NCBI RefSeq assembly: GCF_032842345.1
Contig: NZ_WBKO01000002.1
Span: 58,208 to 82,207 of the forward strand
Direction: 5' to 3'
DNA length: 24,000 bases
Source: Methanoculleus caldifontis
GTDB taxonomy: Archaea > Halobacteriota > Methanomicrobia > Methanomicrobiales > Methanoculleaceae
Shown here: positions 805-19,504 of the stretch, piece after piece
Numbering within the stretch: the stretch's first letter is position 1
How the letters are laid out: each line of letters opens with the position of its first letter
Made by a program: the position numbers and the translations under genes
Notes under the pieces: model-generated
Database searches by the model: none
Told to the model about the DNA's origin: nothing
What the model saw: the letters and a program-made list of their open reading frames with translations, nothing else

Positions 805-806
805 GT

Positions 807-5451: not shown

Positions 5452-5474
5452 GTGAGAGAAGGAGGCTGATACCG

Positions 5475-6404
5475 ATGGGACGGATATACCATGACATCAC
5501 CTGGACGATCGGGAACACCCCGCTCGTTCGGCTGAACCGGGTGACGGAAGGCTCCCGTGCGACCGTCCTCGCCAAGGTGGAGTCGTTCAACCCGATGGGA
5601 AGCGTGAAAGACCGGATAGGTGTCGCGATGATCGACGGGGCCGAGCGGACCGGCGAGATCCGGGAGGGGACGACGATTGTCGAGGCGACGAGCGGCAACA
5701 CCGGGATTGCACTCGCGTTCGTCTGCGCCGCCCGCGGCTACCCGCTCGTGCTCGTGATGCCCGAGACGATGAGCGTGGAACGGCGAAAGCTCCTCGCAGC
5801 GCTTGGCGCCGAGGTGGTCCTCACGCCCGGAGCCGAGGGGATGAGGGGAGCGGTCGGCCGTGCGGCCCACATAGCCGCCGAGAACCCGAACACCTATTTC
5901 GTGCCCCGGCAGTTCGAGAACCCGGCGAATCCCGCCGTCCATCGCCGGACGACGGCCGAGGAGATCTGGCGGGACACCGATGGGATCGTCGATGCCATCG
6001 TCGCCGGCGTCGGGACGGGCGGGACGATCACCGGGGTCGCGGAGGTCATCAAGGCTCGAAAACCCTCCTTTAAGGCCATCGCCGTCGAACCGGCCGAGTC
6101 CCCCGTCCTCTCGGGCGGAACGGCCGGCCCGCACCGGATCCAGGGGATCGGGGCCGGGTTCGTGCCGGATGTTCTCAGAACCGATCTCGTCGACGAGATC
6201 CTCCGGGTTACCTCCGCGGATGCCTTTGCGATGAGCCGCCAGCTCGCCGCGAAGGAGGGAATCCTTGCCGGCATCTCCTCGGGCGCCGCGGCTCACGCGG
6301 CCTTGCAGGTTGCGGCCCGGCAGGAGTTCGAGGGGAAGACGATCGTCGTGATCCTCCCGGATACGGGCGAGCGCTACCTCTCGACCGATCTCTTTGGAGC
6401 ATGA
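5475..6404 (+). CDS. cysK: Cysteine synthase / O-acetylserine sulfhydrylase
   Basis: [21 protein letters not shown] (PLP-Lys), [21 protein letters not shown] prefer ATG 5475 because GAAGGAGG lies 9-16 nt upstream; GTG 5448 (ORF-track start) is an alternative. Confidence 0.9.
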
Positions 6405-6420
6405 CGGGGGACGGGGCGCG

Positions 6421-7374
6421 GTGAGCATCAGGGAAGATATCCGGACGGTCTTTACAAAAGACCCGGCGGCCCGGTCGACGCTCGAGGTGATCTGCTGCTA
6501 CCCGGGTCTCCACGCGATCTGGGCGCACCGGATAGCGCATGCCTTCTACTGCCGCCGGCTCTATTTCCCGGCCCGGCTCGTCTCCCATATCTCGCGAGCG
6601 CTGACCGGGATTGAGATCCACCCCGGCGCGAAGATCGGGCGCCGGGTCTTCATCGACCACGGCTCAGGCGTCGTGATCGGGGAGACGGCGGAGGTCGGCG
6701 ACGACGTCCTGATCTACATGGGCGTGGTTCTCGGCGGCACGGCGCTTGAGCAGACAAAAAGGCACCCGACCATCGAGGACGGCGTCGTCATCGGGTCGGG
6801 GGCGAGCGTTCTCGGCCCCATCACCGTCGGCCGCGGGGCAAAGATTGGGGCGGGTTCGGTCGTCGTCCGCCCCGTCCCCCCTGGTGCGACGGTCGTTGGG
6901 GTTCCGGGCAGGCTCGCGGGCCCGAAGTGCCGGAAGGGCCAGGAGCGACTCGACCGCGGCGACCTCCCCGACCCGATGCTCCGGGTGGTCAGCCGCATGC
7001 TCGATAGGCAGAACCGGATCGACGAGCGGCTCCGGGCGGTGGAGCGGTCGGGATTGGTCGGCGGCAAACGGCAGGAGGAGATCGCGCTCGAGGAGAGCGT
7101 CAGGGCGGCGCTGAGAGAGGTGATCGACCCGGAGGTCGGGATCGACGTCGTCGATCTCGGCCTCGTCAAGGGGATCACCGTCCAGGACTCCTCGGTGCTC
7201 GTGGAGATGGTCCTGACCACCGCCGCCTGCCCTCTCGTCGACTACCTCTCCGACCAGGTCAGGAGCCGGGTGCTCGACGTGAGCGGTGTCAGGGACGTCG
7301 AGGTCCGGGTGCTCGACGAACCCTGGGACTGGGACCGGTTCTTCGCTCAGAGAGACATTCTTGGCGAACCCTGA
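6421..7374 (+). CDS. cysE: Serine O-acetyltransferase fused to a C-terminal DUF59/MIP18 (SufT/PaaD-like Fe-S assembly) domain
   Basis: N-terminal [27 protein letters not shown] and hexapeptide repeats ([44 protein letters not shown]). C-terminal ~95 aa (nt ~7087-7371): [19 protein letters not shown]...[12 protein letters not shown]...[13 protein letters not shown]. Start is GTG 6421 or TTG 6394. Confidence 0.85.
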
Positions 7375-7382
7375 AGACCGGC

Positions 7383-8351
7383 CTACCGGGGGAGGTCCAG
7401 CATCCGCCGGATCGCCGTCCGCGCCCGGGCGGCGGTATCCTCCGGGACCGTCACCCGCGGCTCACACCGTTCGAGGGCTGCAAGCACCTTCGCGAGATCG
7501 GTCTTTTTCATGTTGACGCAGACCGCCCGGCTCGAGAGAGGGAAGAAGACCTTTTCCGGGCACTGTTTTTTGAGCTGGTGGAGGAGCCCTGCCTCGGTGC
7601 CGATGACGAACTCCCGGCAGGGGCTCGCACAGGCGTGCCGCACCATTCCCGAGGTCGAGAAGACGCGATCGGCGCGGTCGATCACCTCGGGCCGGCACTC
7701 GGGATGAACGAGCACCTCGGCGTCCGGGTGGGCACGGCGGGCTTCCTCCACGTCCCCGGTTGTCATCCGGTCGTGGACGATGCAATAGCCGTCCCAGGGG
7801 AGGATCTCTTTTTCGGTGAACCGGGCGACGTAGCGGCCGAGGTTCCGGTCGGGAAGGAAGATAACCTGCTCCGCCGCGAGCGACTCGACGACGGCGACGG
7901 CGTTTGCGGAGGTGCAGCAGATATCGCTCTCCGCCTTCACTTCGGCGGAGGTGTTGACGTAGGCAACCACGGCGGCTTTTGGGAACCGCTCGCGGAGAAC
8001 CCGGACCTCGCCGGGGACGACCATCTCCGCCATCGGACAGCAGGCGTCGGCCGCGGGCAGGACGACCGTCTTCTCCGGCGAGAGGATCGCCGCCGTCTCG
8101 GCCATGAAGTCGACGCCGCAGAAGACGATGACGTCGGCATCGACCTTCGCCGCCGCTTGTGCGAGTTCGAGCGAGTCCCCGACGAGGTCGGCGACCTCCT
8201 GCACCGTCGGGATCTGGTAGTTGTGGGCGAGGATGACGGCGCCGCGCTCCTCTTTCAACGCGGCTATCCGTTCGACGAGGGTTTGGGCGGGACTTGAAGA
8301 TGGGATGGTATCACAACCTCTCTTTGCAGTCGACGATGCGGTCCTGTCCAT
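7383..8351 (-). CDS. nadA: Quinolinate synthase ([4Fe-4S] enzyme)
   Basis: AVILAHNYQ, VADLVGDSLELA, FCGVDFMAETA, CCPMAEM, VHPEC. I prefer ATG 8351 because GTG 8372 would abut the palindrome at 8373. Confidence 0.9.
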   Translation of the reverse strand: MDRTASSTAKRGCDTIPSSSPAQTLVERIAALKEERGAVILAHNYQIPTVQEVADLVGDSLELAQAAAKVDADVIVFCGVDFMAETAAILSPEKTVVLPAADACCPMAEMVVPGEVRVLRERFPKAAVVAYVNTSAEVKAESDICCTSANAVAVVESLAAEQVIFLPDRNLGRYVARFTEKEILPWDGYCIVHDRMTTGDVEEARRAHPDAEVLVHPECRPEVIDRADRVFSTSGMVRHACASPCREFVIGTEAGLLHQLKKQCPEKVFFPLSSRAVCVNMKKTDLAKVLAALERCEPRVTVPEDTAARARTAIRRMLDLPR

Positions 8352-8372: not shown

Positions 8373-8386
8373 TTAACAATTGTTAA
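8373..8386. promoter_or_regulatory. Perfect palindrome TTAACAATTGTTAA, copy 1 (candidate operator / promoter element)
   Basis: Read directly; lies in the nadA / 8430-ORF divergent gap. The centre is 28.5 nt from nadA ATG 8351 and 50.5 nt from ATG 8430. Identical copies at 9825 and 16410. Confidence 0.6.
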
Positions 8387-8429
8387 TACGTGATCCGGCC
8401 CGGGTTGCCGGACTTACAGGGACGATCCC

Positions 8430-8777
8430 ATGGCGCGAATCTTATCTGAACGGGACGTGACGATCCTGAAGAGATCTGCCCCGGAATGCCTGGGGCTGGT
8501 CTGCGCGGGTTCAGGAGGGCCATACCGGTCCATCCTCCCCCCGCTTGCGAACCACTACGCGACGGACGCAGAGGATTTCCGGAAGCGGCTGGAACGGCTG
8601 AACGATGACGACCTCCGTTACCTCGTAGGACTGATACTGGACGGGAGCGAGAGCCTCGGCTGCGTTCCTCCCGAGCATATTGAGGTCTTCCTCACCTTCG
8701 TCGATGACCGGCTCGGCCGGGACGCCGCCCTCGCGATCCTGCAGTATTACGAGAGGGAGGACGGGTGCGCCCGGTGA
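8430..8777 (+). CDS. Hypothetical 115-aa protein with four Cys, no family recognised
   Basis: ATG-initiated ORF with balanced composition (MARILSERDVTILKRSAPECLGLVCAGSGG...). Convergent with the radical-SAM gene, 9-nt spacer. Palindrome copy 1 lies ~50 nt upstream. Confidence 0.55.
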   Translation: MARILSERDVTILKRSAPECLGLVCAGSGGPYRSILPPLANHYATDAEDFRKRLERLNDDDLRYLVGLILDGSESLGCVPPEHIEVFLTFVDDRLGRDAALAILQYYEREDGCAR

Positions 8778-8786
8778 GCCCCTGCC

Positions 8787-9779
8787 TCAGACATCCCGGA
8801 ATGGGGTGAGGTCGCACCCGGTGCAGGGGAGGCACATCGTCCTCGCCCGCCGGGGGTCAAGGTCGTGTCGTTCCAGTGTCTCGCGGGTCATCGCCGCGAG
8901 GCGGAGGAGCCGCTCCGGCGACGGGCGCTCGACGGCGATCTCCCCCGCCCGGAGGGGCGATGCGGAGATCGGCCGGAGGATGGGAATGACGCCTATCCTC
9001 GCAAGAAGGGCGACGCCGTCTCTGATCGTTTCGTCGTCTTCGCCGAGGCCGATGATGAAGTTCGAGAAGACGGCGTTCCTCCCGAAGACCTCCACCGCCC
9101 CTGCGAGCGCATTGAGGATGAACGGAAGGGAGAGGCCGGGGCAGACCCGCGCGAAGATTGCCGGGTCCATCGTCTCGACGTTGTACTTGATCTCATCGGC
9201 ACCGGCGGCGCGGAGGATCGCGGTCGAGTCCGCGGTCGGATAGACCGAGACCCCGATCGGGAGATCGAACCGCGCCCGGAGCGCCCTCACCACGGCGGCC
9301 ATCCGCTCCACCTCCTGCTCCGGCGATCCGGCGACGCCGCTCGTGAGGGAGATCGCAGAGAGGCTCCCGCTGGCGGCAGCCTCCTCGACCATCCTGACGA
9401 CCGTCTCCGTGTCCTTGATCGCCCCGTCGAGCTTCGGCACCGGGCAGAACTTGCAGTCGTAGATGCAGCGCTCGCTGACGGTGATGTAGGCCTGTTCCGG
9501 GCAGTGACAGAGCGAGCGCTCGAGCCTGCCCCGCACGATCGTCTCCCCATTCCGGACAATGGCGATCCCATCCCTGTCCGGGACGACCCGGAGCGGCGAT
9601 GCGGGGTTGACGGAGAGGCGGACCCGCCGGCCGCCGGAGCGGATGAAGACCGACGACCCTCCGGCGCCGGGACCCGCCGTCGCCGTTGTCGGCAGGAAAT
9701 CTGCGCTTAGCGCCTCGTCGATGCTCGCCGACCCTATGCTGATGAGATACGCCTTCTCCTCGGGTGTCATGGTACGCAT
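8787..9779 (-). CDS. Radical SAM enzyme, biotin/lipoyl-synthase-related type with an extra C-terminal Cys cluster
   Basis: CIYDCKFCPVP (CxxxCxxC) radical-SAM motif in a TIM-barrel-like core (ISLTSGVAG...IKYNVETMD...NFIIGLGEDD). C-terminal CLPCTGC. ~95-aa N-terminal extension. RBS GGGAGGAG lies 9 nt before ATG 9779. Confidence 0.8.
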   Translation of the reverse strand: MRTMTPEEKAYLISIGSASIDEALSADFLPTTATAGPGAGGSSVFIRSGGRRVRLSVNPASPLRVVPDRDGIAIVRNGETIVRGRLERSLCHCPEQAYITVSERCIYDCKFCPVPKLDGAIKDTETVVRMVEEAAASGSLSAISLTSGVAGSPEQEVERMAAVVRALRARFDLPIGVSVYPTADSTAILRAAGADEIKYNVETMDPAIFARVCPGLSLPFILNALAGAVEVFGRNAVFSNFIIGLGEDDETIRDGVALLARIGVIPILRPISASPLRAGEIAVERPSPERLLRLAAMTRETLERHDLDPRRARTMCLPCTGCDLTPFRDV

Positions 9780-9824
9780 GAATTCAGCTCCTCCCTCTCG
9801 TTGTCGTGGCTGCCGGGACGGAAG

Positions 9825-9838
9825 TTAACAATTGTTAA
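9825..9838. promoter_or_regulatory. Perfect palindrome TTAACAATTGTTAA, copy 2
   Basis: Read directly; the centre is 52.5 nt upstream of radical-SAM ATG 9779. In the other direction a TATA-like ATATATTA lies at ~9867-9874, upstream of the thiS-like gene. Confidence 0.6.
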
Positions 9839-9955
9839 TCAGACTTATGGGTATCGCCAGGGATCCATATATTACTTGTCGTTGCGGCCGAATCTGCCGC
9901 ATTCCGGTTCTGCAGGACATTTATGGGGTGGCGGGACCAATGCTCTGGGACAGGT

Positions 9956-10150
9956 ATGCAGATCATCCTCCCGGACAGGAGCGTGCGGACGCTTTCCTGC
10001 GCCTCCGCGCCGATAGAAGAGATCCTCCTTGAGCTCGGCATCAACCCGGCGACCGTGATCGTCGTGAAGAACGGCAGGATCGTCCCCGAGGACGTGACGG
10101 CGGAAGAGGGCGACGAGCTCCGGATCCTCCGGTTCTCGCACGGCGGGTGA
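9956..10150 (+). CDS. ThiS/MoaD-family ubiquitin-like sulfur carrier (64 aa, C-terminal Gly-Gly)
   Basis: MQIILPDRSVRTL...VKNGRIVPEDVTAEEGDELRILRFSHGG-stop: beta-grasp length and pattern with terminal GG. I prefer ATG 9956; the N-terminal 11 aa added by the ORF-track start 9923 look non-native. Confidence 0.7.
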   Translation: MQIILPDRSVRTLSCASAPIEEILLELGINPATVIVVKNGRIVPEDVTAEEGDELRILRFSHGG

Positions 10151-10154
10151 ACCG

Positions 10155-11072
10155 GTGACTTCGGCGGAGAACCGGTGCTCTCTCTGCGGCGAACCCGCGG
10201 TCGTCCGCCTCGCCGAGCCGGAGCGGCGGCTCTGCGCCGCCCACTTCATCGAGGACGCCGGGGCCCGCGTCTTCGCCGCCGTGAAGCACGAATGCATGAT
10301 ATCTTCGGGCGACCGGGTCGCCGTCGGCCTGAGCGGGGGGAAAGACAGCACCGCCCTGCTCCTGCTGCTCCACCCCATCCTCCCCGCACTCGGCGCGAGT
10401 CTCATTGCGGTCACCATCGACGAAGGGATCGCGGGCTACCGGGAGGAGACCCTCAAGGCCGCAGAATCCCTGACAGACGAACTCGGCGTCGAGCATGCGA
10501 TCGTCACGTTTACCGACCTCTTCGGGGACGATCTCGACAGGCTGCTCGTCGGAAGAGAACCGCAGGGCTGCACCGTCTGCGGCGTGCTGCGCAGGCGGGC
10601 GCTCGTCGAGGGGGTAAAGAGGGTCGGCGCGACGAAGCTTGCCACCGGCCATAACCTCGACGACGAGGCGCAGTCGGTCCTGATGAACGTCCTCCGCGGC
10701 GACCTCCCCCGCCTCCTCCAGGACACCTCAGCCGGCTATCCGGGTCACTTCGTCCCGCGGATAAAGCCGCTTGCCGTCCTCTCCGAGAAAGAGATCGTGA
10801 CCTACCTCCTCCTCCGCAGCTATTTCCGTGACCTGCCCGAGTGCCCCTACGCCGGGACCGCGCTCCGGTCGGAGGTGCGATCGATGCTTGCCGGGCTCGA
10901 GCACCGCCACCCGGGGACGATGCTCCGCCTGATGCGGTTCCGCGATGGGGTCAGGCGTTCGGCCTGCCCTGCGGAGCCGGCGAAGGCGCTCTCTACCTGC
11001 CGGATCTGCGGCGAACTTGCGAGCGGCGAGGTTTGCCAGGTCTGCAGGCTGCTCGGGCGGGACGGAAAGTAG
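10155..11072 (+). CDS. TtuA/Ncs6(Ctu1)-type tRNA 2-thiolation PP-loop ATPase
   Basis: N-terminal Zn finger CSLCGEP...LCAAH, PP-loop VGLSGGKDSTALL, cluster ligands GCTVCGVLRR and PECPY, KLATGHNLDDEAQ, C-terminal Zn finger CRICGELASGEVCQVC. GTG start lies 4 nt after the carrier gene. Confidence 0.85.
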   Translation: MTSAENRCSLCGEPAVVRLAEPERRLCAAHFIEDAGARVFAAVKHECMISSGDRVAVGLSGGKDSTALLLLLHPILPALGASLIAVTIDEGIAGYREETLKAAESLTDELGVEHAIVTFTDLFGDDLDRLLVGREPQGCTVCGVLRRRALVEGVKRVGATKLATGHNLDDEAQSVLMNVLRGDLPRLLQDTSAGYPGHFVPRIKPLAVLSEKEIVTYLLLRSYFRDLPECPYAGTALRSEVRSMLAGLEHRHPGTMLRLMRFRDGVRRSACPAEPAKALSTCRICGELASGEVCQVCRLLGRDGK

Positions 11073-11078
11073 CGGGTC

Positions 11079-11390
11079 TCACCGGTCGCCGCCGCAGCAG
11101 GACCCCTCATCTCCCCCGCAGCCGCAGGTGCCGCTGTCCATCTCCTTACCCCGGAGGGCCGCCCCGATCATCGCCCAGGCGCACCCGACCCCGCTCTGGA
11201 CCTCGATGGCCTGCACCGGGCAATTCCTGGCGCACGCCCCGCACTCCATGCACTCCTCCGGCCGGACGACCTCGACCCGCCGGTTCCCCTCTGCAAAGAC
11301 CCCGTGCGGGCAGACCTCGGTGCACCGCAGGCAGCCGAAACACCGCTCCGGGTTGTAGCGGAGGGTGTTCTCGCGGTAGGAGTCAAACAT
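11079..11390 (-). CDS. hgcB: HgcB, 2x[4Fe-4S] ferredoxin of the mercury methylation pair
   Basis: Last 103 codons of listed ORF 11079-12416. CFGCLRCTEVCP and CMECGACARNCP ferredoxin motifs plus the C-terminal Cys-rich tail (GTCGCGGDEGSCCGG). Its ATG shares one base with the hgcA TGA (TGATG). Confidence 0.85.
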   Translation of the reverse strand: MFDSYRENTLRYNPERCFGCLRCTEVCPHGVFAEGNRRVEVVRPEECMECGACARNCPVQAIEVQSGVGCAWAMIGAALRGKEMDSGTCGCGGDEGSCCGGDR

Positions 11391-12436
11391 CAGACCGCCC
11401 CCAGAAGGCGGGCCACCCCGAGGACGGCGGCAAGGACGGCTCCCAGGACCGCCATCCCGGCCATGAACGGCACGTAGCGGAAGATCTCCTTCTTCACGCC
11501 GGTCCGCGACGTGAACGGGGTCGAACCGGTGAAGTTGAGCGCGAGGTACGCGGTCACGGGGGGCATGAGGAGGAGAGGTGCGAGCGCGGCAGGGACGCCT
11601 GCCCACCCGGACGCGGCAGTCTCCATGAAGAAGGTGGCCGAGAAGGGAAGAGCGACGATTCCGCCCAGAATGAGCCCTTTCGTGCTGAAGTCCCGGGTGG
11701 GGATGAACGGCAACAGGGCCGGGAAGAGCACCGTTCCGGCAAGGACCGCGGAGATTGCCCCGAGCGCTGCCGGCAGGCCTGCAAGGAGGTAAAGGACGAT
11801 CGCGCCTGCAGCGGTCGGAAGCGCGGCGTGGACGAGCTCCATCGGCGCGAGCACGAGCCGGTCGACGACCGGGAAGCGGACGCGCCGCATATCGGGCGTC
11901 GCTCGCCCGATGGCGAGATACTCCGGGAGGTCGCTTGCCCGCACGGGCCCGTACTCCACGCTGAATCCCGAACGCCGCAGCACTTCGTGGGCAGAGACGC
12001 CCGGGGCGCCGAGCTGCGGGACGATGAGCGTCCGGTGCCGCACGACGGACGCGAGACCCGTGAGCGCTATCCTCCGGACGATCTCGTCGGTGCCGAAGGT
12101 CCCCTTCCCTGCAGCGCACCAGACGTTGATCCCGTGCGTGTCGAGCACAAGGATGTAGCCGTCGTGGCCGGAGAGGGCGGACCGGAGCGCATCGAAACTC
12201 AAGGTGTAGTTTGAGGAGGCAAAGACCGGCGAGTCGGGCGTGGGGTTCCCGAGCCGGTAGAGCCCGGGCTCCACGCGGTGCCCCATCCGATTTACTCCCC
12301 AGCGCGCGAGGAAGTGATCGAGGTGGTTGGCGGGCGTGATCCTGCTGTCTGTCGTTCGGATCTCCTGCACCGGTTCGGCGGCCGGCTGAACGGTCTCCGG
12401 ACAGGACCGGCAGCACGACTGCGGCGGGGATGCCAT
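11390..12436 (-). CDS. hgcA: HgcA, corrinoid protein of mercury methylation (N-terminal CFeSP-like domain + C-terminal membrane domain)
   Basis: Diagnostic cap-helix motif GINVWCAAGKGTFGT. Upstream VEPGLYRLGNPTPDSPVFASSNYTLSFDALR. C-terminal ~4-5 hydrophobic helices. I prefer ATG 12436 (GGAG upstream); ATG 12454 is an alternative. Confidence 0.9.
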   Translation of the reverse strand: MASPPQSCCRSCPETVQPAAEPVQEIRTTDSRITPANHLDHFLARWGVNRMGHRVEPGLYRLGNPTPDSPVFASSNYTLSFDALRSALSGHDGYILVLDTHGINVWCAAGKGTFGTDEIVRRIALTGLASVVRHRTLIVPQLGAPGVSAHEVLRRSGFSVEYGPVRASDLPEYLAIGRATPDMRRVRFPVVDRLVLAPMELVHAALPTAAGAIVLYLLAGLPAALGAISAVLAGTVLFPALLPFIPTRDFSTKGLILGGIVALPFSATFFMETAASGWAGVPAALAPLLLMPPVTAYLALNFTGSTPFTSRTGVKKEIFRYVPFMAGMAVLGAVLAAVLGVARLLGAV

Positions 12437-12440
12437 GACC

Positions 12441-12743
12441 TCACTCCGCCTCATCGATCAGCGGCCCGAGGACGCTCTTGACCATCCCGCTGAGGCTCCC
12501 GGCCTTCATCAGCGCAAGGCAGCAGACCTCGCCGTCCCGCTCCCAGGTGATCAGCGCCAGCTTGTCGCCCGGTCGGATCCCTGCCTTTTCCCGCACGTCT
12601 TTCGGCAGGACCATCTGCCCGCGTTCGTCCACGCTGAGCACCGCCTCCACGCTGCAGACGGCAACCTGGTTGCACCCGCACGGCGTTCCGCCGGGCGGGC
12701 ACCGTTCCGGATTGGTGTTCTCTTCTGCCATAGTGTTCTTCAT
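12441..12743 (-). CDS. AbrB/SpoVT-type (looped-hinge helix) DNA-binding protein with an N-terminal Cys-rich motif
   Basis: GQMVLPKDVREKAGIRPGDKLAL is a typical SpoVT/AbrB core. N-terminal CPPGGTPCGCNQVAVC and a later CC pair. ATG 12743 lies ~25 nt downstream of a TATA-like CTATAAAT (12771-12764, minus), which implies a leaderless mRNA. The stop lies 4 nt before hgcA ATG 12436. Confidence 0.7.
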   Translation of the reverse strand: MKNTMAEENTNPERCPPGGTPCGCNQVAVCSVEAVLSVDERGQMVLPKDVREKAGIRPGDKLALITWERDGEVCCLALMKAGSLSGMVKSVLGPLIDEAE

Positions 12744-12780
12744 ACTATGGTTGAGAGGGGAGGATTTATAGTTATCCAAA

Positions 12781-12800
12781 TTTTCAGATTAATCTGAAAA
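12781..12800. promoter_or_regulatory. Perfect 20-bp palindrome TTTTCAGATTAATCTGAAAA upstream of the AbrB-like/hgcAB promoter
   Basis: Read directly. It lies ~10 nt upstream of the TATA-like element and ~47 nt upstream of ATG 12743. It could instead (or also) be an AU-rich terminator hairpin for the upstream RNA. Confidence 0.5.
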
Positions 12801-12815
12801 TTCAAAATTTTTGTT

Positions 12816-13265
12816 GTGATCCCCGAAGCCCGGTTCCGGTGGCTGTCGAGAAGGCGGCGCCGCAGCTCCCCGGTAGAGGGCTGCAGAGCAGGTAATTTAG
12901 CCCTGTTGAAATGCTCCAAATAACCTCTGGATAGCATGAGTACCAATAGGGGCTGGCGGTGTGGCCTCGCGCGAAGCGAGTTTGAGCACCGTCAGGTGTG
13001 AGTCGCGAAGTCTGGATGGGTATTGATAGTCTCCTTCGCGTTCGTCGCGGCTTCGCGTGGGGTAGCTGGTGCAGATGGCGATACAGCCTCACGCGAAGAG
13101 CGCGAAGCCGCGAAGTGCGATGGTCCGAAGGGCCGGAGCTCGAGCACCGTTAGGTGCGAAGTGCGAGCGTAAGCGAGCTTGAGAGGCCTCAAGGCTTCGA
13201 AGGGAAGTCAAGCGGTTTGACCTCCAGAGGGGCTTCCTCGGAACTTTAGCGAAGTACCGGGTCAC
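12816..13265 (-). ncRNA. Large structured RNA candidate with RNase P RNA-like architecture (assignment tentative)
   Basis: A ~450-nt stretch with no credible ORF in an otherwise packed region. On the minus strand: terminal helix GUGA-CCC (13265-13259) with GGG-A-UCAC (12824-12816). Hairpin 13258-13240, then GAGGAAGCCCC (13239-13229), whose GAAGCCC pairs with GGGCUUC (12831-12825) inside ACCGGAACCGGGCUUC (compare CR-V ACAGAACCCGGCUUA). CCUCUGG (13230-13224) pairs with CCAGAGG (12930-12924). GGAGCA...AGGGCUAAAU lies at 12917-12891. A 9-bp hairpin at 13225-13203 has a G.U on minus that would be A.C on plus. U-runs follow the 3' end. The canonical GGAAAGUCC with bulged U is not cleanly present. 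Confidence 0.4.
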
Positions 13266-14041
13266 TCGCCGGCGGACGGCGGCGAAGCGCCGCGGACCCG
13301 CCCCCACCCGGTATAGACGTTCATCTTTTTGCTCCGCACGAACCCGATAACGGTGAGCCCGCCTGCCTCCGCGGCCTCGACGGCGGTGGTGGTCGTCGCC
13401 CCCCGCGAGACGATCACCGGGATGTTCGCCACCAGGCACTTCCTGACCATCTCGGAGGATATCCGGCCGGAGCTGACCGCAAACGTCCGTGAAAAGTCGA
13501 TCCCTTCGAGGAGGCCGTGGCCGACGACCCGGTCGAGGGCGTTGTGCCGACCGATATCCTCGGCGATCCGGATTGCCTTCCCTTCTCCCTCGAAGAGCCC
13601 GACGAGGTGGATGCCGCCGGTGATCCGGTGCAGATCCGAGTCGAGCGTCTCTTTCGTCGCCGCCCGGATCGCCTCGGGCGCGAGGACGAGGTCGGACCGG
13701 ATCGCGGGGAGCCGTCCGGTATCAAGGAACGAGGTGCTCCCGCCGCACCCGGAGAGGACGGTCTTGTGCGAGGTCAGGATCGCGAACGGGTTCTTCGTGA
13801 GGACGCTCGCGGTGTTCCCCTCGATGCGGATCGACTCGATCTCGCGGAGTTCCTTGACGATCCGCTCCGTGTAGAGGAACCCCACGACGAACTCCCGGAG
13901 CATCGCCGGGCTCGTCATGGCGGTGAGGGCGTGGCGCCCGTTGACGGTCACGGAGAGGGGCATCTCCTCCACGACAGGGTGGGTTGCGGGAACGAACGTC
14001 TCCCCGTCGCCTTTGACGATCGGCAGTTCCCGGTAGAGCAT
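13262..14041 (-). CDS. fdhD: FdhD-family sulfurtransferase (sulfuration of Mo/W-bisPGD cofactor)
   Basis: Last 259 codons of listed ORF 13262-14617. VLSGCGGS, ITGGIHLVGLF, EDIGRHNALDRVVG (family signature), SGRISSEMVRKC. Its ATG 14041 shares one base with the upstream TGA (TGATG). Confidence 0.85.
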   Translation of the reverse strand: MLYRELPIVKGDGETFVPATHPVVEEMPLSVTVNGRHALTAMTSPAMLREFVVGFLYTERIVKELREIESIRIEGNTASVLTKNPFAILTSHKTVLSGCGGSTSFLDTGRLPAIRSDLVLAPEAIRAATKETLDSDLHRITGGIHLVGLFEGEGKAIRIAEDIGRHNALDRVVGHGLLEGIDFSRTFAVSSGRISSEMVRKCLVANIPVIVSRGATTTTAVEAAEAGGLTVIGFVRSKKMNVYTGWGRVRGASPPSAGE

Positions 14042-15225
14042 CAGGTCGCCCTCCGGGATATCTCTTCGACGGTGGCTATCATTGTGTCGACTTCCTCTGC
14101 TGTGGTATAGATGTAGGTGCTCGCCCGCACCGTTCCGTCCGGGAGGCCGATATGCTCCATGAGCGGCTGGCAGCAGTGGTGTCCCGACCGGACCAGGACG
14201 GCCGCGGCCTCGTCGAGGACCTGCGCCGCCTCGTGCGGGTGCATCCCTTCGACCGTGAACGAGACGACCCCGATCCGTTCGCCGGACGCATCCGGTCCCG
14301 CGACCGTGACGCCGTCGAGCGCGGCAAGCCCGTCGATCAGCCGGGCAGCGAGCCGCTCCTCGTGCCGCCGCACCGTCTCCATCCCGATCTCCCGGAGATA
14401 CGCCGCCGCCCGTGCAAGCCCTATGACGCCGGCGATCGGGGGCGTTCCCGCCTCGTAGCGCTGCTCGCCGGGAGCGAGGATATAGCCTTCGGCCGTCGCG
14501 CTCTCGACCGACCCGCCCCCGACGAAGAGCGGTTCGAGGTCCGGCCGGCGCATCCAGAGCGCGCCCGTCCCGGTCGGGCCGAGCATCTTGTGGCCCGAGA
14601 AGCAGAAATAGTCGCACCCGATGGCGGCGACGTCGACCGGGAGATGCGGAGCCGACTGGGCGCCGTCGACGAGGAGCCGCGCACCCCGGTCGCGGCAGAT
14701 CCCGGCGATCTCGCGGACGGGAAGGACGGTGCCGAGGACGTTTGAAGCGTGGGTGACGGCGACGAGCCGGGTATCGTCGCGGATGGCCGCCTCCAGGTCG
14801 GCGAGGTCGAGGCAGCCCTCAGAGTCCGGCCGGACGATATCCACCGCGACCCCCCGCTCGCGGAGCCGGAGCCAGGGGAGGAGGTTTGAGTGGTGTTCGA
14901 GGAGCGTTGTCACCACCCGGTCGCCCCGCTGCCAGGCGAGACCGGCGGCGACCGCTCCTATCGCCTCGGTGGTGTTCCGGGTGACGGCAAGGGCGCCCCC
15001 GTCCCCGCCGACGAACGACCGGACGGCGTCGCGGGCGTCCCGGTAGCGGTGGGTGGCGACGACGGCGAGCCGGTGCATCCCCCTCCCGACGTTTGCCCGG
15101 TACCGGAGGTCGTACTCGACCATCGCCTGGACCACCGGTTTCGGGGTGAGCGACGTCGCCGCGCTGTCCAGGTAGATGAGGTCCCGGGTGATCGGGAAAT
15201 CCGTCCTGCAGTCCTCGATCTTCAT
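14041..15225 (-). CDS. Cysteine desulfurase, group II (SufS/CsdA-like)
   Basis: IYLDSAATS, PLP-Lys FSGHKMLGPTGTGALWMRR, active-site RSGHHCCQPLM. Its ATG overlaps the larE-like stop (ATGA). Confidence 0.85.
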   Translation of the reverse strand: MKIEDCRTDFPITRDLIYLDSAATSLTPKPVVQAMVEYDLRYRANVGRGMHRLAVVATHRYRDARDAVRSFVGGDGGALAVTRNTTEAIGAVAAGLAWQRGDRVVTTLLEHHSNLLPWLRLRERGVAVDIVRPDSEGCLDLADLEAAIRDDTRLVAVTHASNVLGTVLPVREIAGICRDRGARLLVDGAQSAPHLPVDVAAIGCDYFCFSGHKMLGPTGTGALWMRRPDLEPLFVGGGSVESATAEGYILAPGEQRYEAGTPPIAGVIGLARAAAYLREIGMETVRRHEERLAARLIDGLAALDGVTVAGPDASGERIGVVSFTVEGMHPHEAAQVLDEAAAVLVRSGHHCCQPLMEHIGLPDGTVRASTYIYTTAEEVDTMIATVEEISRRAT

Positions 15226-16028
15226 AATACCTCGTCCATGCTCCCGCTTCGGTATCCGGCGAGGTCCAGGGCGACATAGGCAAAGCCGATCCCCCGGAAC
15301 GCGGCCATGACCTTGTCTCGCACGCTAAAGAGGGATTCCAGTTTGTCGGGAGGCACCTCTATCCGGGCGACATCGCCGTGCACCCGGACCCGCACCTGCA
15401 CCTGAGCGAATCCCAGGCCCTGCAGGGCCTCCTCGGCCGCCTCGATCCGGGCGAGCGCCTCCTCTGTGATCTCGTCCCCGTAGGGGATGCGGGTTGCGAG
15501 GCAGGCTGCCGAAGGCTTGTTCCAGAACGGGAACCCACACTCGCGTGCGATCCTGCGGACGTCGCCCTTCGCCGCACCCGCCTCGACAAGGGGGTGGCAG
15601 ACCCCTTCCTCGTCGCTTGCAGCAAGCCCCGGGCGGTACGTGCCGAGGTCGGAGACGTTCGTTCCGTCTGCAACCGTGTCGATCCCCCCCCGGCGGGCCA
15701 GTTCCTTCAGCAGGAGGGAGGATGCTTTTTTGCAGGCGTAGCACCGGTCGGGCCGGTTCGCCCGGAAGGTCTCGTCCCGGAGGATCGGGAACGCCACGAC
15801 CTCCAGGGGGAGGTCCAGCCGGGTAGCGGTCTCCCGCGCCTCCCGCACCGCCTGCCGGGGCAGGAGCGGCGAGTCCAGGAGGACGCACCGGACCCGCTCC
15901 TTTCCGAGCGCCCGGACGGCCAGGGCGGCGAGGAGCGAGCTGTCGACGCCCCCTGAGTAGGCGACCAGCATGGGCCCTTTCGCCTTGAGGCTCCTGGCGA
16001 TCGCCTCACCGCTGCTCTCTGGTTCCAC
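15222..16028 (-). CDS. LarE-like PP-loop ATP-dependent sulfur transferase (three-Cys type)
   Basis: PP-loop VAYSGGVDSSLLA. YRPGL, WNKPSAACLATRIPYG, VRVRVHGDVARIEV, LDLAGYRSGSMD align by eye along the length of Lactobacillus LarE. CYACKK plus the AACLATR Cys give a possible 3-Cys cluster site. Confidence 0.8.
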   Translation of the reverse strand: MEPESSGEAIARSLKAKGPMLVAYSGGVDSSLLAALAVRALGKERVRCVLLDSPLLPRQAVREARETATRLDLPLEVVAFPILRDETFRANRPDRCYACKKASSLLLKELARRGGIDTVADGTNVSDLGTYRPGLAASDEEGVCHPLVEAGAAKGDVRRIARECGFPFWNKPSAACLATRIPYGDEITEEALARIEAAEEALQGLGFAQVQVRVRVHGDVARIEVPPDKLESLFSVRDKVMAAFRGIGFAYVALDLAGYRSGSMDEVL

Positions 16029-16040
16029 CGGCCCCTCTCC

Positions 16041-16367
16041 TCACGCTTCCGTGTCGCACGACCCGCCGAGCTGGTTCTCTTCGCGGATCTGCGTGCAGAT
16101 CTCACATATCCGGGAGGCGAGGTCGTCTACCCGGCCGGCCTGGAGGTCCTGTGCAAGCCGGCTGAGCGACTCTTTCACCTCGCCCTCAAAGACAATCCGG
16201 TACCCACGTTTCCCGGTGCGGTACTGCGAGATCGCCGACGGCGTCATATCGAGGAGGCGGGCGGCCTCCAGCTGGGAAACGCCCATGGCATTCAGTTCTT
16301 CAGCGATCGCAGCCCGGATCGCGGGCAACACGTTCCATACAATCAACTGGCAGGGGAGTTTCATCAT
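16041..16367 (-). CDS. Small XRE/Cro-type HTH transcription regulator with four Cys (candidate binder of the TTAACAATTGTTAA palindrome)
   Basis: HTH GVSQLEAARLLDMTPSAISQYRTGKRG. Cys at position 6 and in the C-terminal ICEICTQI...GGSCD. First gene of the larE-like/sufS-like/fdhD operon (12-nt gap). Palindrome copy 3 is centred 49.5 nt upstream of its ATG. Confidence 0.75.
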   Translation of the reverse strand: MMKLPCQLIVWNVLPAIRAAIAEELNAMGVSQLEAARLLDMTPSAISQYRTGKRGYRIVFEGEVKESLSRLAQDLQAGRVDDLASRICEICTQIREENQLGGSCDTEA

Positions 16368-16409
16368 ACCACAACTTTTAATGGTTCCGGAGCAGATCTA
16401 ACAGTGATG

Positions 16410-16423
16410 TTAACAATTGTTAA
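16410..16423. promoter_or_regulatory. Perfect palindrome TTAACAATTGTTAA, copy 3
   Basis: Read directly, in the divergent gap between the regulator (ATG 16367) and iscS (ATG 16480). Directly followed by TATA-like TTTTATC (16424-16430) in the iscS direction. Confidence 0.65.
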
Positions 16424-16479
16424 TTTTATCTTCGGAGAACAAATACCTTTGTGCAGAGTAAGAGTGCGGTGTGAACGCC

Positions 16480-17664
16480 ATGGTTGACGGGAGATCGCGG
16501 CCGATCTACATGGACCATGCGGCGACGACGCCGGTACGGCCGGAGGTCGTCGAAGAGATGCTCCCCTGCTTCTTGGAACGGTTCGGTAATCCCTCCTCGA
16601 TCTACGCCCTCGCCCGTGAGGCGCAGGTGACGATGGAGAGGGCCCGGGGACGGGTGGCGGCGGCGATCGGGGCGAGCACGGATGAGATTTTCTTCACCTC
16701 CGGTGGGACCGAGGCCGATAACTGGGCGATCAAAGGGGTGGCGGCGGCGAACCGGAAGAAGGGCGATCATATCGTCACCTCCGCGATCGAGCACCACGCG
16801 GTCCTCCACCCCTGCCAGGCCCTCGAGAAGCAGGGCTACCGGGTCACCTACCTCCCGGTCGACGAGTTCGGCCGGGTGGAGCCGGCATCGGTCGAGGAGG
16901 CGATCACGGAGAAGACCGTCCTCGTCTCGGTGATGGCCGCAAACAACGAGATCGGGACGATCCAGCCGGTCCGCGCGATCGCGGGAGTCACCCACGACCA
17001 TGGCATTCTCTTCCACACCGACGCCGTCCAGGCGATCGGGGCGATACCGATCGACGTGGATGCGCTCGGGATCGACCTCCTCTCGCTCTCGGCCCACAAG
17101 TTCGGCGGGCCGAAGGGGACGGGAGCGCTCTACATCCGGCGGGGGACCCGCGTAAAGCCGCTCATGGATGGCGGGGCGCAGGAGCGGGGCCGCCGGGCCG
17201 GGACCGAGAATGTCCCCGGGATCGTCGGGATGGGGAAGGCGATCGACCTTGCGGTCGCCGAGATGCCGCAGAAGTCCGCCTGGCTCGCCGCGATGCGGGA
17301 CCGGCTGATCCGGGGGATCCTGGATTCTATCCCGGATACCCGTCTGAACGGCCACCCGACCGAGCGGCTCGCAAACAACGTCAATATGGCGTTCCGCTAC
17401 GTCGAGGGGGAGTCGATCCTTCTCTCGCTCGACGCCCTCGGGATCGCGGGCTCGACGGGGAGCGCCTGCACCTCGGCGTCGCTCGAGCCCTCGCATGTCC
17501 TGACCGCCTGTGGCCTCCCACCCGAGCACGCCCACGGCTCGCTCCGCCTCACCCTCGGCTCCCGGAACACCGATGAGGACGTCGATTACGTTCTTTCCGC
17601 CCTCCCCCGGGTGATCGAGCGCCTGCGGGAGATGTCGCCGCTCAGCCCTAACGATAACGCGTGA
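16480..17664 (+). CDS. iscS: Cysteine desulfurase, group I (IscS/NifS)
   Basis: IYMDHAATTP, PLP-Lys LSAHKFGGPKGTGALYIRR, active-site loop STGSACTSASLEPSHVL. ATG 16480; the ORF track starts at GTG 16471. Confidence 0.9.
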   Translation: MVDGRSRPIYMDHAATTPVRPEVVEEMLPCFLERFGNPSSIYALAREAQVTMERARGRVAAAIGASTDEIFFTSGGTEADNWAIKGVAAANRKKGDHIVTSAIEHHAVLHPCQALEKQGYRVTYLPVDEFGRVEPASVEEAITEKTVLVSVMAANNEIGTIQPVRAIAGVTHDHGILFHTDAVQAIGAIPIDVDALGIDLLSLSAHKFGGPKGTGALYIRRGTRVKPLMDGGAQERGRRAGTENVPGIVGMGKAIDLAVAEMPQKSAWLAAMRDRLIRGILDSIPDTRLNGHPTERLANNVNMAFRYVEGESILLSLDALGIAGSTGSACTSASLEPSHVLTACGLPPEHAHGSLRLTLGSRNTDEDVDYVLSALPRVIERLREMSPLSPNDNA

Positions 17665-17669
17665 TCTCT

Positions 17670-18059
17670 ATGTACAGCGAACAAGTTATGGACCATTTCA
17701 TGAACCCCCGGAACATGGGGGAGATCCCGGATGCGGACGGTGTCGGCGAGGTCGGGAACCCGGCCTGCGGCGACATCATGCGGATAACTCTCCGGGTCGA
17801 AGAGGACAGGATTGTGGATGCAAAGTTCAAGACTTTCGGGTGCGCCGCCGCCATCGCGTCGAGCTCGATGGCCACCGAACTCATCAAGGGCAAAACCCTC
17901 GAAGAGGCGTGGGCGGTCACCAACCGGGCGGTTGCCGAGGCGCTGGAGGGGTTGCCTCCCCAGAAACTTCACTGCTCGGTCCTCGCCGAAGAGGGGATCC
18001 ACAAGGCGATCGACGACTACCGGGCGCGGCACGGAACACCGACCGCGAATGGAGGATAA
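17670..18059 (+). CDS. iscU: Fe-S cluster scaffold IscU/NifU-like
   Basis: VMDHFMNPRNMGE, GNPACGDIM, FKTFGCAAAIASSS, KLHCSVLAEE: the three cluster Cys in canonical context. ATG 17670. Confidence 0.9.
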   Translation: MYSEQVMDHFMNPRNMGEIPDADGVGEVGNPACGDIMRITLRVEEDRIVDAKFKTFGCAAAIASSSMATELIKGKTLEEAWAVTNRAVAEALEGLPPQKLHCSVLAEEGIHKAIDDYRARHGTPTANGG

Positions 18060-18063
18060 CGGT

Positions 18064-18798
18064 ATGCTCACCGAGCGGGAACAGGAGCGCTACGCCCGGC
18101 AGATCCTCCTCTTCGGCGAGGCGGGTCAAGAACGGCTGAAGAAGGCGAAGGTCTTCATCGCCGGGGCAGGGGGTCTCGGCTGCCCGATCGCCCTCTACCT
18201 TGCTGTCGCCGGTGTCGGGGAGATCCGCCTTGTGGACCGGGATACAGTGGACCGGACCAACCTGAACCGGCAGGTCCTCCACTGGGAGAGGGATCTCGGT
18301 ACCCCTAAGGCCGAATCGGCAGAGGCGAAACTCCGGGAGGCAAACCCGGATGTCCACATAGAGGCTCTGGAGGAGACCATCGACGAGGCGAACGTCCGGG
18401 ACCTGGTGGGTGATGCCGATCTGATCGTGGATGCGATGGACAACTTCCCGACCCGCTACCTCCTGAACCGGGAGGCGCTCCGGTCCGGCGTGCCGCTCAT
18501 CCACGGTGCAATCAGGGGATTCGACGGCCAGGCAACGACCCTCGTCCCCGGCCGGACTGCCTGCCTCGAGTGCCTCTTCCCGGAGGCCCCGCCCGGCGAG
18601 GTCTTCCCGGTCGTCGGAACTACACCGGGGATCATCGGCCTCATTCAGGCGAACGAGGCGATCAAGTATATCACCGGTGCCGGCGACCTTCTGCTGGACC
18701 GGCTCCTCATCTGGGACGGCCTTTCGACGACGCTTGAGACGTACGCCGTGGAGCGGCGGCCGGACTGCCCTGCCTGCGGTGAAGGGATGAGACCATGA
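18064..18798 (+). CDS. moeB: E1-like adenylyltransferase of the MoeB/ThiF/UbaA family
   Basis: RYARQILLFGEAGQERL, Rossmann FIAGAGGLGCP, DRDTVDRTNLNRQ, Zn motifs CLECLF and CPACG. Real gene is the 3' part of listed ORF 17812-18798. Confidence 0.85.
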   Translation: MLTEREQERYARQILLFGEAGQERLKKAKVFIAGAGGLGCPIALYLAVAGVGEIRLVDRDTVDRTNLNRQVLHWERDLGTPKAESAEAKLREANPDVHIEALEETIDEANVRDLVGDADLIVDAMDNFPTRYLLNREALRSGVPLIHGAIRGFDGQATTLVPGRTACLECLFPEAPPGEVFPVVGTTPGIIGLIQANEAIKYITGAGDLLLDRLLIWDGLSTTLETYAVERRPDCPACGEGMRP

Positions 18799-19073
18799 AG
18801 GTCCGGGTGAAGACGTTCGCCCGGTTCCGGGAGATCCTCGGCGGGGAGTCGACGCTTGATCTCCCCGATGGGGCAACGATGGCAGCGGTTCTCGCCGCGC
18901 TCCGTGGCCGTGCCGGGGACGAGAGCGATGCAATCTTCGATGAGACCGGGGCGCTCCGGGCGCATGTCATCCTGATGCGAAACGGGAAGCGGATCGGCAA
19001 AGCCGACCGCAATGCTCTCGTTCTTGCGGAGGGGGACGAGATCGCCCTCTTCCCGCCGGTCGCGGGCGGATGA
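18795..19073 (+). CDS. moaD: MoaD/ThiS-family sulfur carrier (92 aa, C-terminal Gly-Gly)
   Basis: MKVRVKTFARFREILG...EGDEIALFPPVAGG-stop. Its ATG overlaps the moeB TGA (ATGA), and its TGA overlaps the moaE ATG (ATGA). Confidence 0.75.
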   Translation: MKVRVKTFARFREILGGESTLDLPDGATMAAVLAALRGRAGDESDAIFDETGALRAHVILMRNGKRIGKADRNALVLAEGDEIALFPPVAGG

Positions 19074-19504
19074 GGGGGTATGAGGTTATGATCGGTATTA
19101 CCAGGGATGTCATCGACGCAGGCGCGATGATCGAGGCGGCGAAGAGACCGGGCATGGGAGCCCTGGTCACCTTCTGTGGTGTCGTCAGGGACGACGGCGG
19201 TATCGAGCGGATGGAACTGGAGGTCTACGAAGAGGTTGCGGTCCGCGAACTGGAACTGATCCGCGACGAGACAATGCGGGAATACCCGATCGAGTCGGTG
19301 GATATCGTCCACCGTGTCGGGTCTCTCCAGCTCGGCGAGACCATACTCCTCATCGTCGTCGGTGCCGGGCACCGGAAAGAGGCGTTTGAGGCCTGCGAGT
19401 ACATCCTCGAGCGAATCAAGGAGAGCGTGCCGATCTGGAAGAAGGAGATCGGGGAGGGCGGCGAGCGCTGGGTGCCGGGCGAGTCGTCCGGGGGCGACGC
19501 ATGA
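19070..19504 (+). CDS. moaE: Molybdopterin synthase catalytic subunit MoaE
   Basis: GALVTFCGVVRD, IVHRVGSLQLGETILLIVVGAGHRKEAFEACEYILERIKESVPIWKKE: the MoaE signature. ATG 19088 is a possible alternative start. Confidence 0.85.
   Translation: MRGYEVMIGITRDVIDAGAMIEAAKRPGMGALVTFCGVVRDDGGIERMELEVYEEVAVRELELIRDETMREYPIESVDIVHRVGSLQLGETILLIVVGAGHRKEAFEACEYILERIKESVPIWKKEIGEGGERWVPGESSGGDA

Follow-up and report, generated by a model that had tools for sequence, protein, structure and literature searches.

A candidate palindromic operator and its small four-cysteine Cro/C1-type regulator at sulfur and iron-sulfur genes of Methanoculleus caldifontis and related methanogens

In Methanoculleus caldifontis, a 24,000-nucleotide stretch of contig NZ_WBKO01000002.1 (NCBI RefSeq assembly GCF_032842345.1, positions 58,208 to 82,207 of the forward strand; the whole stretch is called the window hereafter) carries an island of sulfur and iron-sulfur (Fe-S) genes. 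The perfect palindrome TTAACAATTGTTAA, 14 bp in length, occurs in the window as three exact copies, all of which are located in divergent promoter gaps (Table 1). O1 and O2 flank nadA and a radical S-adenosylmethionine (radical-SAM) gene, respectively; O3 lies between the iscS operon and the gene of a 108-amino-acid (aa) helix-turn-helix (HTH) protein. To judge from its conserved position and its neighbours, the palindrome is very probably the operator of this adjacent HTH protein.

The G+C content of the window is 62–70%, and none of 100 dinucleotide-preserving shuffles contained any exact copy of TTAACAATTGTTAA. No further match was found in the window at up to three mismatches. All three copies extend to ...TTAAT. 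With a position weight matrix (PWM) made from the related loci described below, they score 29–30 bits; no weaker site in the window rises above noise, the next best one (at 12801) having 13.6 bits against a shuffle maximum of 21.8. O1 is the sole A/T-rich stretch of its gap, which is bordered by two start codons. Between O2 and the ATG of the radical-SAM gene there is no other A/T-rich element, and this ATG is preceded by the Shine-Dalgarno (SD)-like GGGAGGAG. O3 is located 64.5 nucleotides (nt) upstream of the iscS ATG, which is probably the one at 16481. We also considered the palindrome as an RNA element and rejected this idea; the Rfam scan of the window at gathering thresholds gave nothing, and a loopless 7-bp A/T stem is implausible as an RNA signal.

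A sequence-only reading of the window, made earlier by a model, had named the flanking genes and had held that three exact copies, present only in divergent promoter gaps, could not be due to chance. The gene names agree with the Pfam and NCBIfam matches, and the absence of near-copies from the window, together with the shuffles, confirmed the second point. The same reading gave distances of 50.5, 52.5, 49.5 and 28.5 nt between palindrome centres and flanking ATGs. All of them follow from the coordinates; however, the value of 49.5 nt for the HTH gene needs correction. Because it matches the conserved MKLPCQ N-terminus, the second ATG, at 16364, is more likely to be the start of this gene, and the distance from the centre of O3 is then 52.5 nt.

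Two other conserved stretches were observed near O2. One, GGAYATTTATGGGGYGGCGGGAYCAAC (9915–9945), is located just upstream of, or overlaps, the annotated start of the ThiS-like gene; it is almost invariant among Methanoculleus (five further loci included), in contrast to the variable sequence around it. A second TATA-like promoter, a conserved leader and the true N-terminus are possible explanations. The other, GGATCC(A/T)TATAT, lies 28 nt downstream of O2.

Table 1. Positions of the palindrome copies, the candidate regulator and the surrounding genes in the window
Feature	Position	Strand	Remarks
Operator copy O1 (TTAACAATTGTTAA), putative	8373–8386	.	Exact match; 78-bp gap between the divergent nadA and 115-aa Cys-protein genes
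Operator copy O2, putative	9825–9838	.	Exact match; between the radical-SAM gene (-) and the SAMP2/ThiS-like and NcsA/TtuA-like genes (+)
Operator copy O3, putative autoregulatory site	16410–16423	.	Exact match; between the regulator operon (-) and the iscS operon (+)
Predicted BRE/TATA-like element of the regulator promoter	16438–16451	-	CAAAGG-TATTTGTT; conserved consensus
Candidate regulator, 108-aa Cro/C1-type (HTH_3) protein	16041–16367	-	PF01381, 24.9 bits vs cutoff 23, residues 21–54
larE	15222–16028	-	One operon with the regulator; 298 bits vs cutoff 150
sufS-like class-V aminotransferase gene	14041–15225	-	Same operon as the regulator
fdhD	13262 to about 14044	-	Same operon as the regulator
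iscS-iscU-moeB(ThiF)-moaD-moaE-ycaO-tfuA operon	16471–21331	+	Divergent from the regulator; Pfam matches; synteny conserved
nadA (quinolinate synthase, Fe-S enzyme), predicted O1 target	7383–8351	-	NadA, 408 bits; site-nadA pairing in 22 loci
115-aa four-Cys protein gene, without family match, predicted O1 target	8430–8777	+	Adjoins a site in the Methanoculleus and Methanofollis orthologs
Radical-SAM gene, predicted O2 target	8787–9779	-	Weak similarity to LipS2/BioB/variant radical-SAM models
SAMP2/ThiS-like sulfur carrier gene, predicted O2 target	9923–10150	+	
NcsA/TtuA-like tRNA thiolase (PP-loop enzyme) gene, predicted O2 target	10155–11072	+	
SepCysS (partial)-MetY-MetX/CBS-DUF1890-DUF1894-ThiI-CysK-CysE/FeS_assembly_P operon	1–7374	+	Frames touch or overlap
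hgcA (mercury methylation)	11390–12454	-	NF040863, 448 bits vs cutoff 275
HgcB-like ferredoxin gene, 2x[4Fe-4S]	11079–11390	-	Cys-rich C-terminus; directly after hgcA

The candidate regulator is a Cro/C1-type protein. Its HTH_3 match is above the Pfam gathering score, and precomputed PF01381 matches are listed for many of its homologs. The protein is 100% identical to one of Methanoculleus caldifontis that is named merely 'transcriptional regulator'. In agreement with the sequence-only reading, it contains four Cys (6, 88, 91 and 104), two of which form a Cys88-x-x-Cys91 pair. All 75 aligned homologs of the subfamily have C88, C91 and at least one Cys in the C-terminal tail, and 74 of them have C6; a conserved set of Cys ligands of this kind is characteristic of Fe-S- or thiol-sensing regulators. 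The family is large, with 702 clusters (50% identity) at E ≤ 1e-10. Named relatives, all with generic names in their sources, are found in Halobacteriota, Bathyarchaeia, Altiarchaeota and Woesearchaeota. Distant members retain an N-terminal PCE and a C-terminal CxxC, often with extra Cys or His.

In the AlphaFold2 (AF2) model, the protein consists of six helices, with a predicted local distance difference test (pLDDT) score of 80; the recognition helix is formed by residues 43–51. A Foldseek search of the PDB with the whole model identified no structure at E ≤ 0.001, and the best matches of a PDB sequence search were generic, namely a lambda-repressor-like protein and HigA (E = 0.003–0.3). Beyond HTH_3, no named family model of Pfam or NCBIfam matches the protein. 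Some genomes contain two paralogs of the regulator. In Methanocalculus chunghsingensis, the two are located about 13 kb apart on one contig, each with its own upstream site; in Methanofollis, there is a second regulator paralog of 125 aa, which is of the PCE type.

Relatives of the HTH protein were sought in one genome per species. This yielded 80 loci (1.28 Mb) from Methanoculleus, Methanofollis, Methanocalculus, Methanoregula, Methanolinea, Methanospirillum, Methanolobus and Methanomethylovorans, which represent Methanomicrobiales and Methanosarcinales. In these loci and the window, we counted 75 copies of the HTH-homolog gene. The degenerate 14-mer TT[C/A]ACAATTGT[G/T]AA, with no more than one mismatch, is found within 120 nt upstream of 65 of the 75 copies; among the other 10, several have versions with two mismatches, and a clear absence is seen only in the six loci of Methanomethylovorans. 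The logo derived from the related loci is a 16-bp palindrome, A-TT[C/A]ACAATTGT[G/T]AA-T, and its flanks are without information. Positions 4–11 are at least 96% conserved, and C5 and G10 reach 99%.

Positions 3 and 12 vary between C and A and between G and T, respectively. TTCACAATTGTGAA is the general form of the motif, and most genera other than Methanoculleus have either this or TTAACAATTGTGAA upstream of the regulator gene. The Methanoculleus loci mostly carry exact TTAACAATTGTTAA; among the named ones, M. frigidifontis differs in having a CG-type site. The AT-type motif occurs only with proteins that have N12, T42 and T51 (17 loci), and the CG-type with proteins that have D12, A42 and S51 (43 loci). 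Residues 42 and 51 mark either end of the recognition helix as predicted, therefore the pairing of variants fits co-evolution of protein and site. The two copies away from the regulator gene are also maintained in other genomes, where the orthologous gaps have otherwise diverged in sequence. O1 is kept in other Methanoculleus, in Methanofollis and in related loci; the gaps orthologous to that of O2 show only the position 3/12 variants TTCACAATTGTTAA and TTAACAATTGTGAA.

Within the 80 loci, the degenerate 14-mer has 114 exact matches, or 177 when one mismatch is allowed. Although the crude calls of open reading frames (ORFs) cover 81% of the bases, 98 of the 114 exact sites lie outside them (p = 5e-54), and most of the 16 sites inside are due to over-called ORFs in G+C-rich DNA. 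Genes whose starts adjoin a site were clustered into families, and these were counted by loci. The regulator itself is the largest family (68 loci), followed by IscS/NifS-like class-V enzymes (50) and NadA (22, including Methanolobus). ThiS/SAMP2-like proteins adjoin sites in 14 loci, the radical-SAM protein in 13, ThiF/MoeB in 8, a B12-binding protein in 6 (Methanolobus), the 115-aa Cys protein and PdxS in 5 each, MoaD in 4, DUF1890 in 3, and CysK and MetX-CBS in 2 each. According to Pfam, a SepCysS-like gene is divergent from the regulator gene in Methanolobus and Methanolinea, with MetY and MetX after it, and ThiN, ThiI and a fusion of PAPS reductase with cysteine desulfurase also flank sites. 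As expected for the operator of an autoregulated factor, further sites are located in promoter regions of functionally related genes, here those of sulfur and Fe-S metabolism. The synteny maps show tandem sites at the SepCysS promoters of Methanofollis, Methanocalculus and Methanolobus. Spacings of tandem copies cluster at 13–14, 21–23 and 26–28 bp, which is usual for cooperative operators. The fusion protein mentioned above has 880 aa and is encoded in two Methanolinea-like loci (L044 and L045, ~16.3–19.0 kb); its gene, PAPS-reductase-like and class-V desulfurase in one, is divergent from iscS, and a copy of the operator motif lies between the two.

A metagenome collection was also scanned for the bare 16-mer ATTCACAATTGTGAAT, with no protein seed, and at least 120 contigs were obtained. 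Among the matches listed, an HTH homolog is located beside the 16-mer in 31 of 120 contigs, the edge of its gene being usually 41–63 nt from the site, and regulon families are found within 3 kb of the 16-mer in 45 of 120. The other 75 of the 120 listed contigs are mostly low in G+C and without regulon families; they look like chance background. With one small gene family standing beside a quarter of the listed matches, the motif can be neither a chance sequence nor a generic repeat. Taken together, these observations agree well with the sequence-only reading. Its autoregulation idea fits the motif being kept at a fixed distance upstream of HTH homologs across two orders, and the conservation in relatives for which it had proposed phylogenetic footprinting is seen both at these sites and in the orthologous gaps. 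The density inside genes that it had named as a possible objection is contradicted by the distribution of the sites outside ORF calls. Its proposal of an operator whose regulon includes the adjacent HTH gene is strengthened by the conserved, intergenic position, the sulfur and Fe-S targets and the metagenome contigs.

The promoter of the regulator gene was analyzed with 78 unique upstream regions anchored on the palindrome. They share the consensus g.AAg.tTTTTtt, a purine-rich stretch resembling the B recognition element (BRE) followed by a T-rich, TATA-like one; the midpoint of this consensus is 25 nt upstream of that of the palindrome. The latter is mostly 52–55 nt from the start codon of the HTH gene, and the SD-like GGTGAT/GTTGTGAT precedes the ATG. 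In the window, the TATA centre is 16441.5 and the palindrome centre 16416.5, and the BRE/TATA-like element is predicted to act as the promoter. In archaea, a TATA box is a T/A-rich octamer that follows a purine-rich BRE and has its centre ~26 nt before the site where transcription begins. As the TATA-like element of the regulator gene is 25 nt upstream of the palindrome centre, transcription of this gene is predicted to start within the palindrome. This would be the classic position of an archaeal repressor, at which recruitment of RNA polymerase is blocked. At O1 and O2 the palindrome is the sole or nearest A/T-rich element, so an overlap with the core promoter, or a position directly beside it, must be assumed there. 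The sequence-only reading took the 28.5 nt between O1 and the nadA ATG as the TATA position, provided that this mRNA is leaderless; at the regulator's own promoter, the palindrome is not at the TATA position and sits on the predicted start.

These features suggest how the system may work. Physical binding of the HTH protein to the palindrome is what the conserved pairing of gene and site points to. The protein would bind as a dimer, with one HTH per half-site; the form of the palindrome, perfect over 14–16 bp and made of two half-sites of 7–8 bp, gives indirect support to this. A dimer on O3 would cover the regulator start and block the recruitment of RNA polymerase, and the HTH-larE-sufS-fdhD operon would be negatively autoregulated. 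A dimer on O1 or O2 would occlude the TATA-binding protein (TBP) and transcription factor B (TFB), or RNA polymerase, and both divergent genes would be shut off. Given that the operator belongs to this protein, we consider it likely that the protein acts as a repressor. For iscS we are less sure of the sign, as O3 could sit just upstream of the iscS promoter. The four Cys may hold an Fe-S cluster or Zn, or serve as reactive thiols, and DNA binding would then be coupled to the sulfur or Fe-S status of the cell. The chance that the regulator senses through its Cys seems about even to us. Thiol or Fe-S sensing is suggested only by the four-Cys signature, kept throughout the subfamily, and a purely structural Zn site would be equally compatible with it.

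The predicted regulon appears to be defined by mobilising sulfur from cysteine or sulfide and then delivering it. Mobilisation and Fe-S assembly would be represented by IscS, the SufS-like enzyme and IscU; carriers, molybdenum cofactor synthesis and tRNA thiolation by MoeB, MoaD, the ThiS-like protein, NcsA, MoaE and FdhD. LarE and the radical-SAM protein, as other sulfur-inserting enzymes, YcaO-TfuA and NadA would belong to it as well. The thioglycine of methyl-coenzyme M reductase is made by YcaO-TfuA (McrA thioamidation). In other genera, the regulon may further include SepCysS and CysK for cysteine, MetX and MetY (downstream of SepCysS) for methionine, and PdxS, ThiN and DUF1890. PdxS makes pyridoxal phosphate, the cofactor of desulfurases.

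Several points weigh against this interpretation. The loci were gathered around the regulator gene, and the genomes were sampled within 10 kb of a regulator gene or a motif match. Six Methanomethylovorans loci keep the regulator and have no palindrome upstream. The co-variation of motif and regulator represents a single lineage event, in the Methanoculleus clade, and is statistically weak; we rejected it as strong proof of a cognate pair for this reason. In Methanoregula, the sole site in the gap between iscS and the regulator gene is ~150 nt from iscS, which has an A/T-rich promoter-like stretch of its own, therefore control of iscS is not universal and membership of the regulon varies between lineages. 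The AF2 termini that carry C6 and C104 have pLDDT below 50, so the model does not show the four Cys converging. The proposed repression and the promoter assignments are deduced from consensus positions only. In addition, O3 could be located just upstream of an iscS BRE/TATA, where archaeal factors can activate.

The two lineages just named show further peculiarities. In Methanomethylovorans, the recognition-helix sequence is unchanged in all six loci. They share another conserved stretch, tagCCACAAyGATTTAATCCaatg, ~40–70 nt upstream of the HTH gene, and a variant, TTCACAATTCTTAA, is present ~3 kb downstream inside a long ORF. Four Methanoregula loci contain weaker copies, gtaACAATTGTGat and ttaaAaGTTGTGAT, which follow the main site at distances of 27 and 44 nt; ttaaAaGTTGTGAT overlaps the SD sequence and the start codon. 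These extra copies suggest cooperative occupation of the whole leader.

The position of O3 relative to iscS leads to another explanation, in which the operator is real and the factor is mainly an activator, or dual; it would recruit TBP/TFB at genes such as iscS and repress only its own. Distances between site and gene differ widely between targets and genera, as this explanation would allow, and the archaeal factors SurR and TrmBL1 are known to switch sign with the position of their sites. However, the site is centred on the predicted start at the regulator promoter, and O1 and O2 are the only A/T-rich elements near enough to serve or overlap the core promoters; both are geometries of a repressor. 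We regard a mainly activating or dual factor as unlikely.

Alternatively, the palindrome might be the operator of another DNA-binding protein, with the HTH gene just one member of the regulon. Besides Methanomethylovorans, where the HTH gene lacks an upstream site, this is favoured by other small regulators that adjoin sites, for example an 84-aa winged-helix protein in two loci. The HTH gene is nevertheless the most constant neighbour of the motif, both in the loci and in the listed metagenome contigs, and the geometry between site and promoter is fixed upstream of it. The motif variant tracks substitutions at both ends of the predicted recognition helix, and a perfect palindrome of 14–16 bp suits a dimeric Cro/C1-type HTH protein. 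Neither does the 115-aa Cys protein qualify; it is confined to Methanoculleus, Methanofollis and related metagenome-assembled genomes (MAGs), whereas the motif is far more widespread. This makes a different cognate factor quite improbable.

An A/T-rich palindrome in a G+C-rich genome, always found in divergent promoter gaps of the window and in one case 28.5 nt upstream of an ATG, could also be taken for a core promoter signal, that is, a symmetric TATA/BRE-like element of bidirectional promoters. At the regulator promoter, a separate BRE/TATA-like element is present 25 nt upstream, and the palindrome itself does not have the features of such an element. Different from TATA boxes, it has nearly invariant C5 and G10, and its outer positions vary only between C and A and between G and T. 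It is found at a small, functionally coherent set of genes; the 24 kb of the window have three sites, and its other promoters lack the motif. Tandem arrays are found as well. We consider this explanation very improbable. A non-regulatory repeat (the end of a mobile element, a recombination site, or a restriction or methylation target around CAATTG, the type II restriction site of MfeI/MunI) would account for a perfect palindrome containing CAATTG and is hardly credible, since conservation ends at 16 bp with flanks devoid of information, orthologous positions are held in genomes whose regulator proteins differ by >30%, the sites are excluded from coding sequence, and a 6-bp recognition site is too short to explain the conservation of 14 positions.

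With the palindrome taken as the operator of the HTH protein, the other genes of the island can be viewed in this context. The order HTH-LarE-(SufS)-FdhD is conserved in many loci. At the other end of the window, the last gene of the SepCysS operon encodes a hexapeptide protein that resembles serine acetyltransferases and is fused to an FeS_assembly_P domain; MetY of this operon is a Cys/Met pyridoxal phosphate enzyme, and SepCysS is incomplete at the window edge. The operon has its promoter outside the window, and the only contig found with these genes ends 120 nt past the window edge. Because SepCysS, DUF1890 and CysK have the motif upstream in other genera, this operon is a probable further member of the regulon. 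DUF1890 and DUF1894 accompany sulfur genes here and in other genera, where copies of the operator motif precede DUF1890. The 115-aa protein has no Pfam or NCBIfam match; its Cys are C20, C25, C77 and C113. In Methanoculleus, Methanofollis and a related MAG, its gene is found beside a copy of the operator motif and is divergent from nadA. A mercury-methylation gene, hgcA, is embedded in the sulfur island together with its HgcB-like partner, and no copy of the palindrome lies near this pair (11079–12454).

Several known regulators resemble the system in part. IscR is a bacterial Rrf2-family protein with a [2Fe-2S] cluster; it is an autoregulated repressor with Cys ligands and a palindromic operator, and its gene is located at iscSU. 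Like IscR, the candidate regulator is encoded next to, here divergently from, iscS-iscU, with a shared putative operator, and has a Cys signature; the resemblance is functional only. Different from IscR, it is a Cro/C1-type HTH_3 protein without homology to the former, and Pfam and NCBIfam gave no Rrf2 match at E ≤ 0.01. Its Cys layout (N-terminal C6, C88xxC91 and a tail Cys) is also different, and the motif is unrelated. The host is an archaeon with TBP/TFB promoters, and the predicted regulon is wider, containing SepCysS, CysK, NadA, ThiS/MoeB and YcaO-TfuA. In Bacillus and Staphylococcus, the master regulator for cysteine metabolism is CymR, another Rrf2 protein, which needs CysK as co-repressor. 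SufR is a cyanobacterial [4Fe-4S] repressor, autoregulated and encoded divergently from sufBCDS. As in these two systems, a single small regulator would govern sulfur, cysteine or Fe-S assembly genes, in a divergent and autoregulated layout like that of SufR; the protein family and the operator are different.

SurR of Thermococcales is an ArsR-type winged-helix protein that governs genes of S0 respiration versus hydrogenase genes. It responds to sulfur in a cysteine-dependent manner, through a CxxC redox switch, and binds palindromes (GTTn3AAC) near BRE/TATA. The candidate regulator does not belong to SurR: its domain is HTH_3, the consensus is TTCACAATTGTGAA, and the genes concerned are those of sulfur trafficking and biosynthesis. 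That the motif differs from GTTn3AAC had been noted in the sequence-only reading, and the consensus TT[C/A]ACAATTGT[G/T]AA bears this out. In terms of the domain, the protein is similar to Cro/C1 (XRE) repressors such as the 434 repressor, SinR and the HigA/MqsA antitoxins. These bind as dimers to palindromes of 14–20 bp that overlap promoters, and are often autoregulated; the operators of 434 have half-sites of the ACAA...TTGT flavour. Different from them, the archaeal family has a subfamily-wide Cys4 signature and a long C-terminal helix. AmzR belongs to an unrelated zipper-like family (bioRxiv 10.1101/2025.05.05.652248). The paper on the ISC system of M. acetivorans makes no mention of such a regulator. 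Nothing describing the HTH protein or the motif was found in the literature, among the Pfam and NCBIfam models or among solved structures, in line with the earlier view that the regulon is undescribed. We rate the logic as that of an ordinary operator and repressor, while the regulator family, the operator and the regulon are undescribed for archaeal sulfur and Fe-S metabolism.

Control of sulfur assimilation and Fe-S supply in methanogens is, to our knowledge, essentially unknown, and we know of no archaeal equivalent of IscR, SufR or CymR; our literature search found nothing that contradicts this. The protein may be an archaeal counterpart of IscR or CymR on an unrelated scaffold, namely a Cys4 Cro/C1-type repressor that would read Fe-S, sulfide or persulfide status and, in class II methanogens, be the master switch by which sulfur trafficking is controlled. 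We put this forward tentatively, the balance tipping slightly against it. If it is true, the targets of the switch would be the genes of SepCysS, IscSU, NadA, the carriers of molybdopterin synthesis and tRNA thiolation, and YcaO-TfuA, and a function would have been assigned for the first time within a wide archaeal family. The analysis supplies a regulator candidate, an operator that is sharply defined over 16 bp, a regulon predicted for two orders and a fixed promoter geometry. It links the expression of YcaO-TfuA and SepCysS to one candidate switch and gives a first clue to the function of small archaeal HTH proteins that form a large family and have no annotation other than 'transcriptional regulator', and with it the question of how methanogens regulate sulfur and Fe-S metabolism becomes directly testable.

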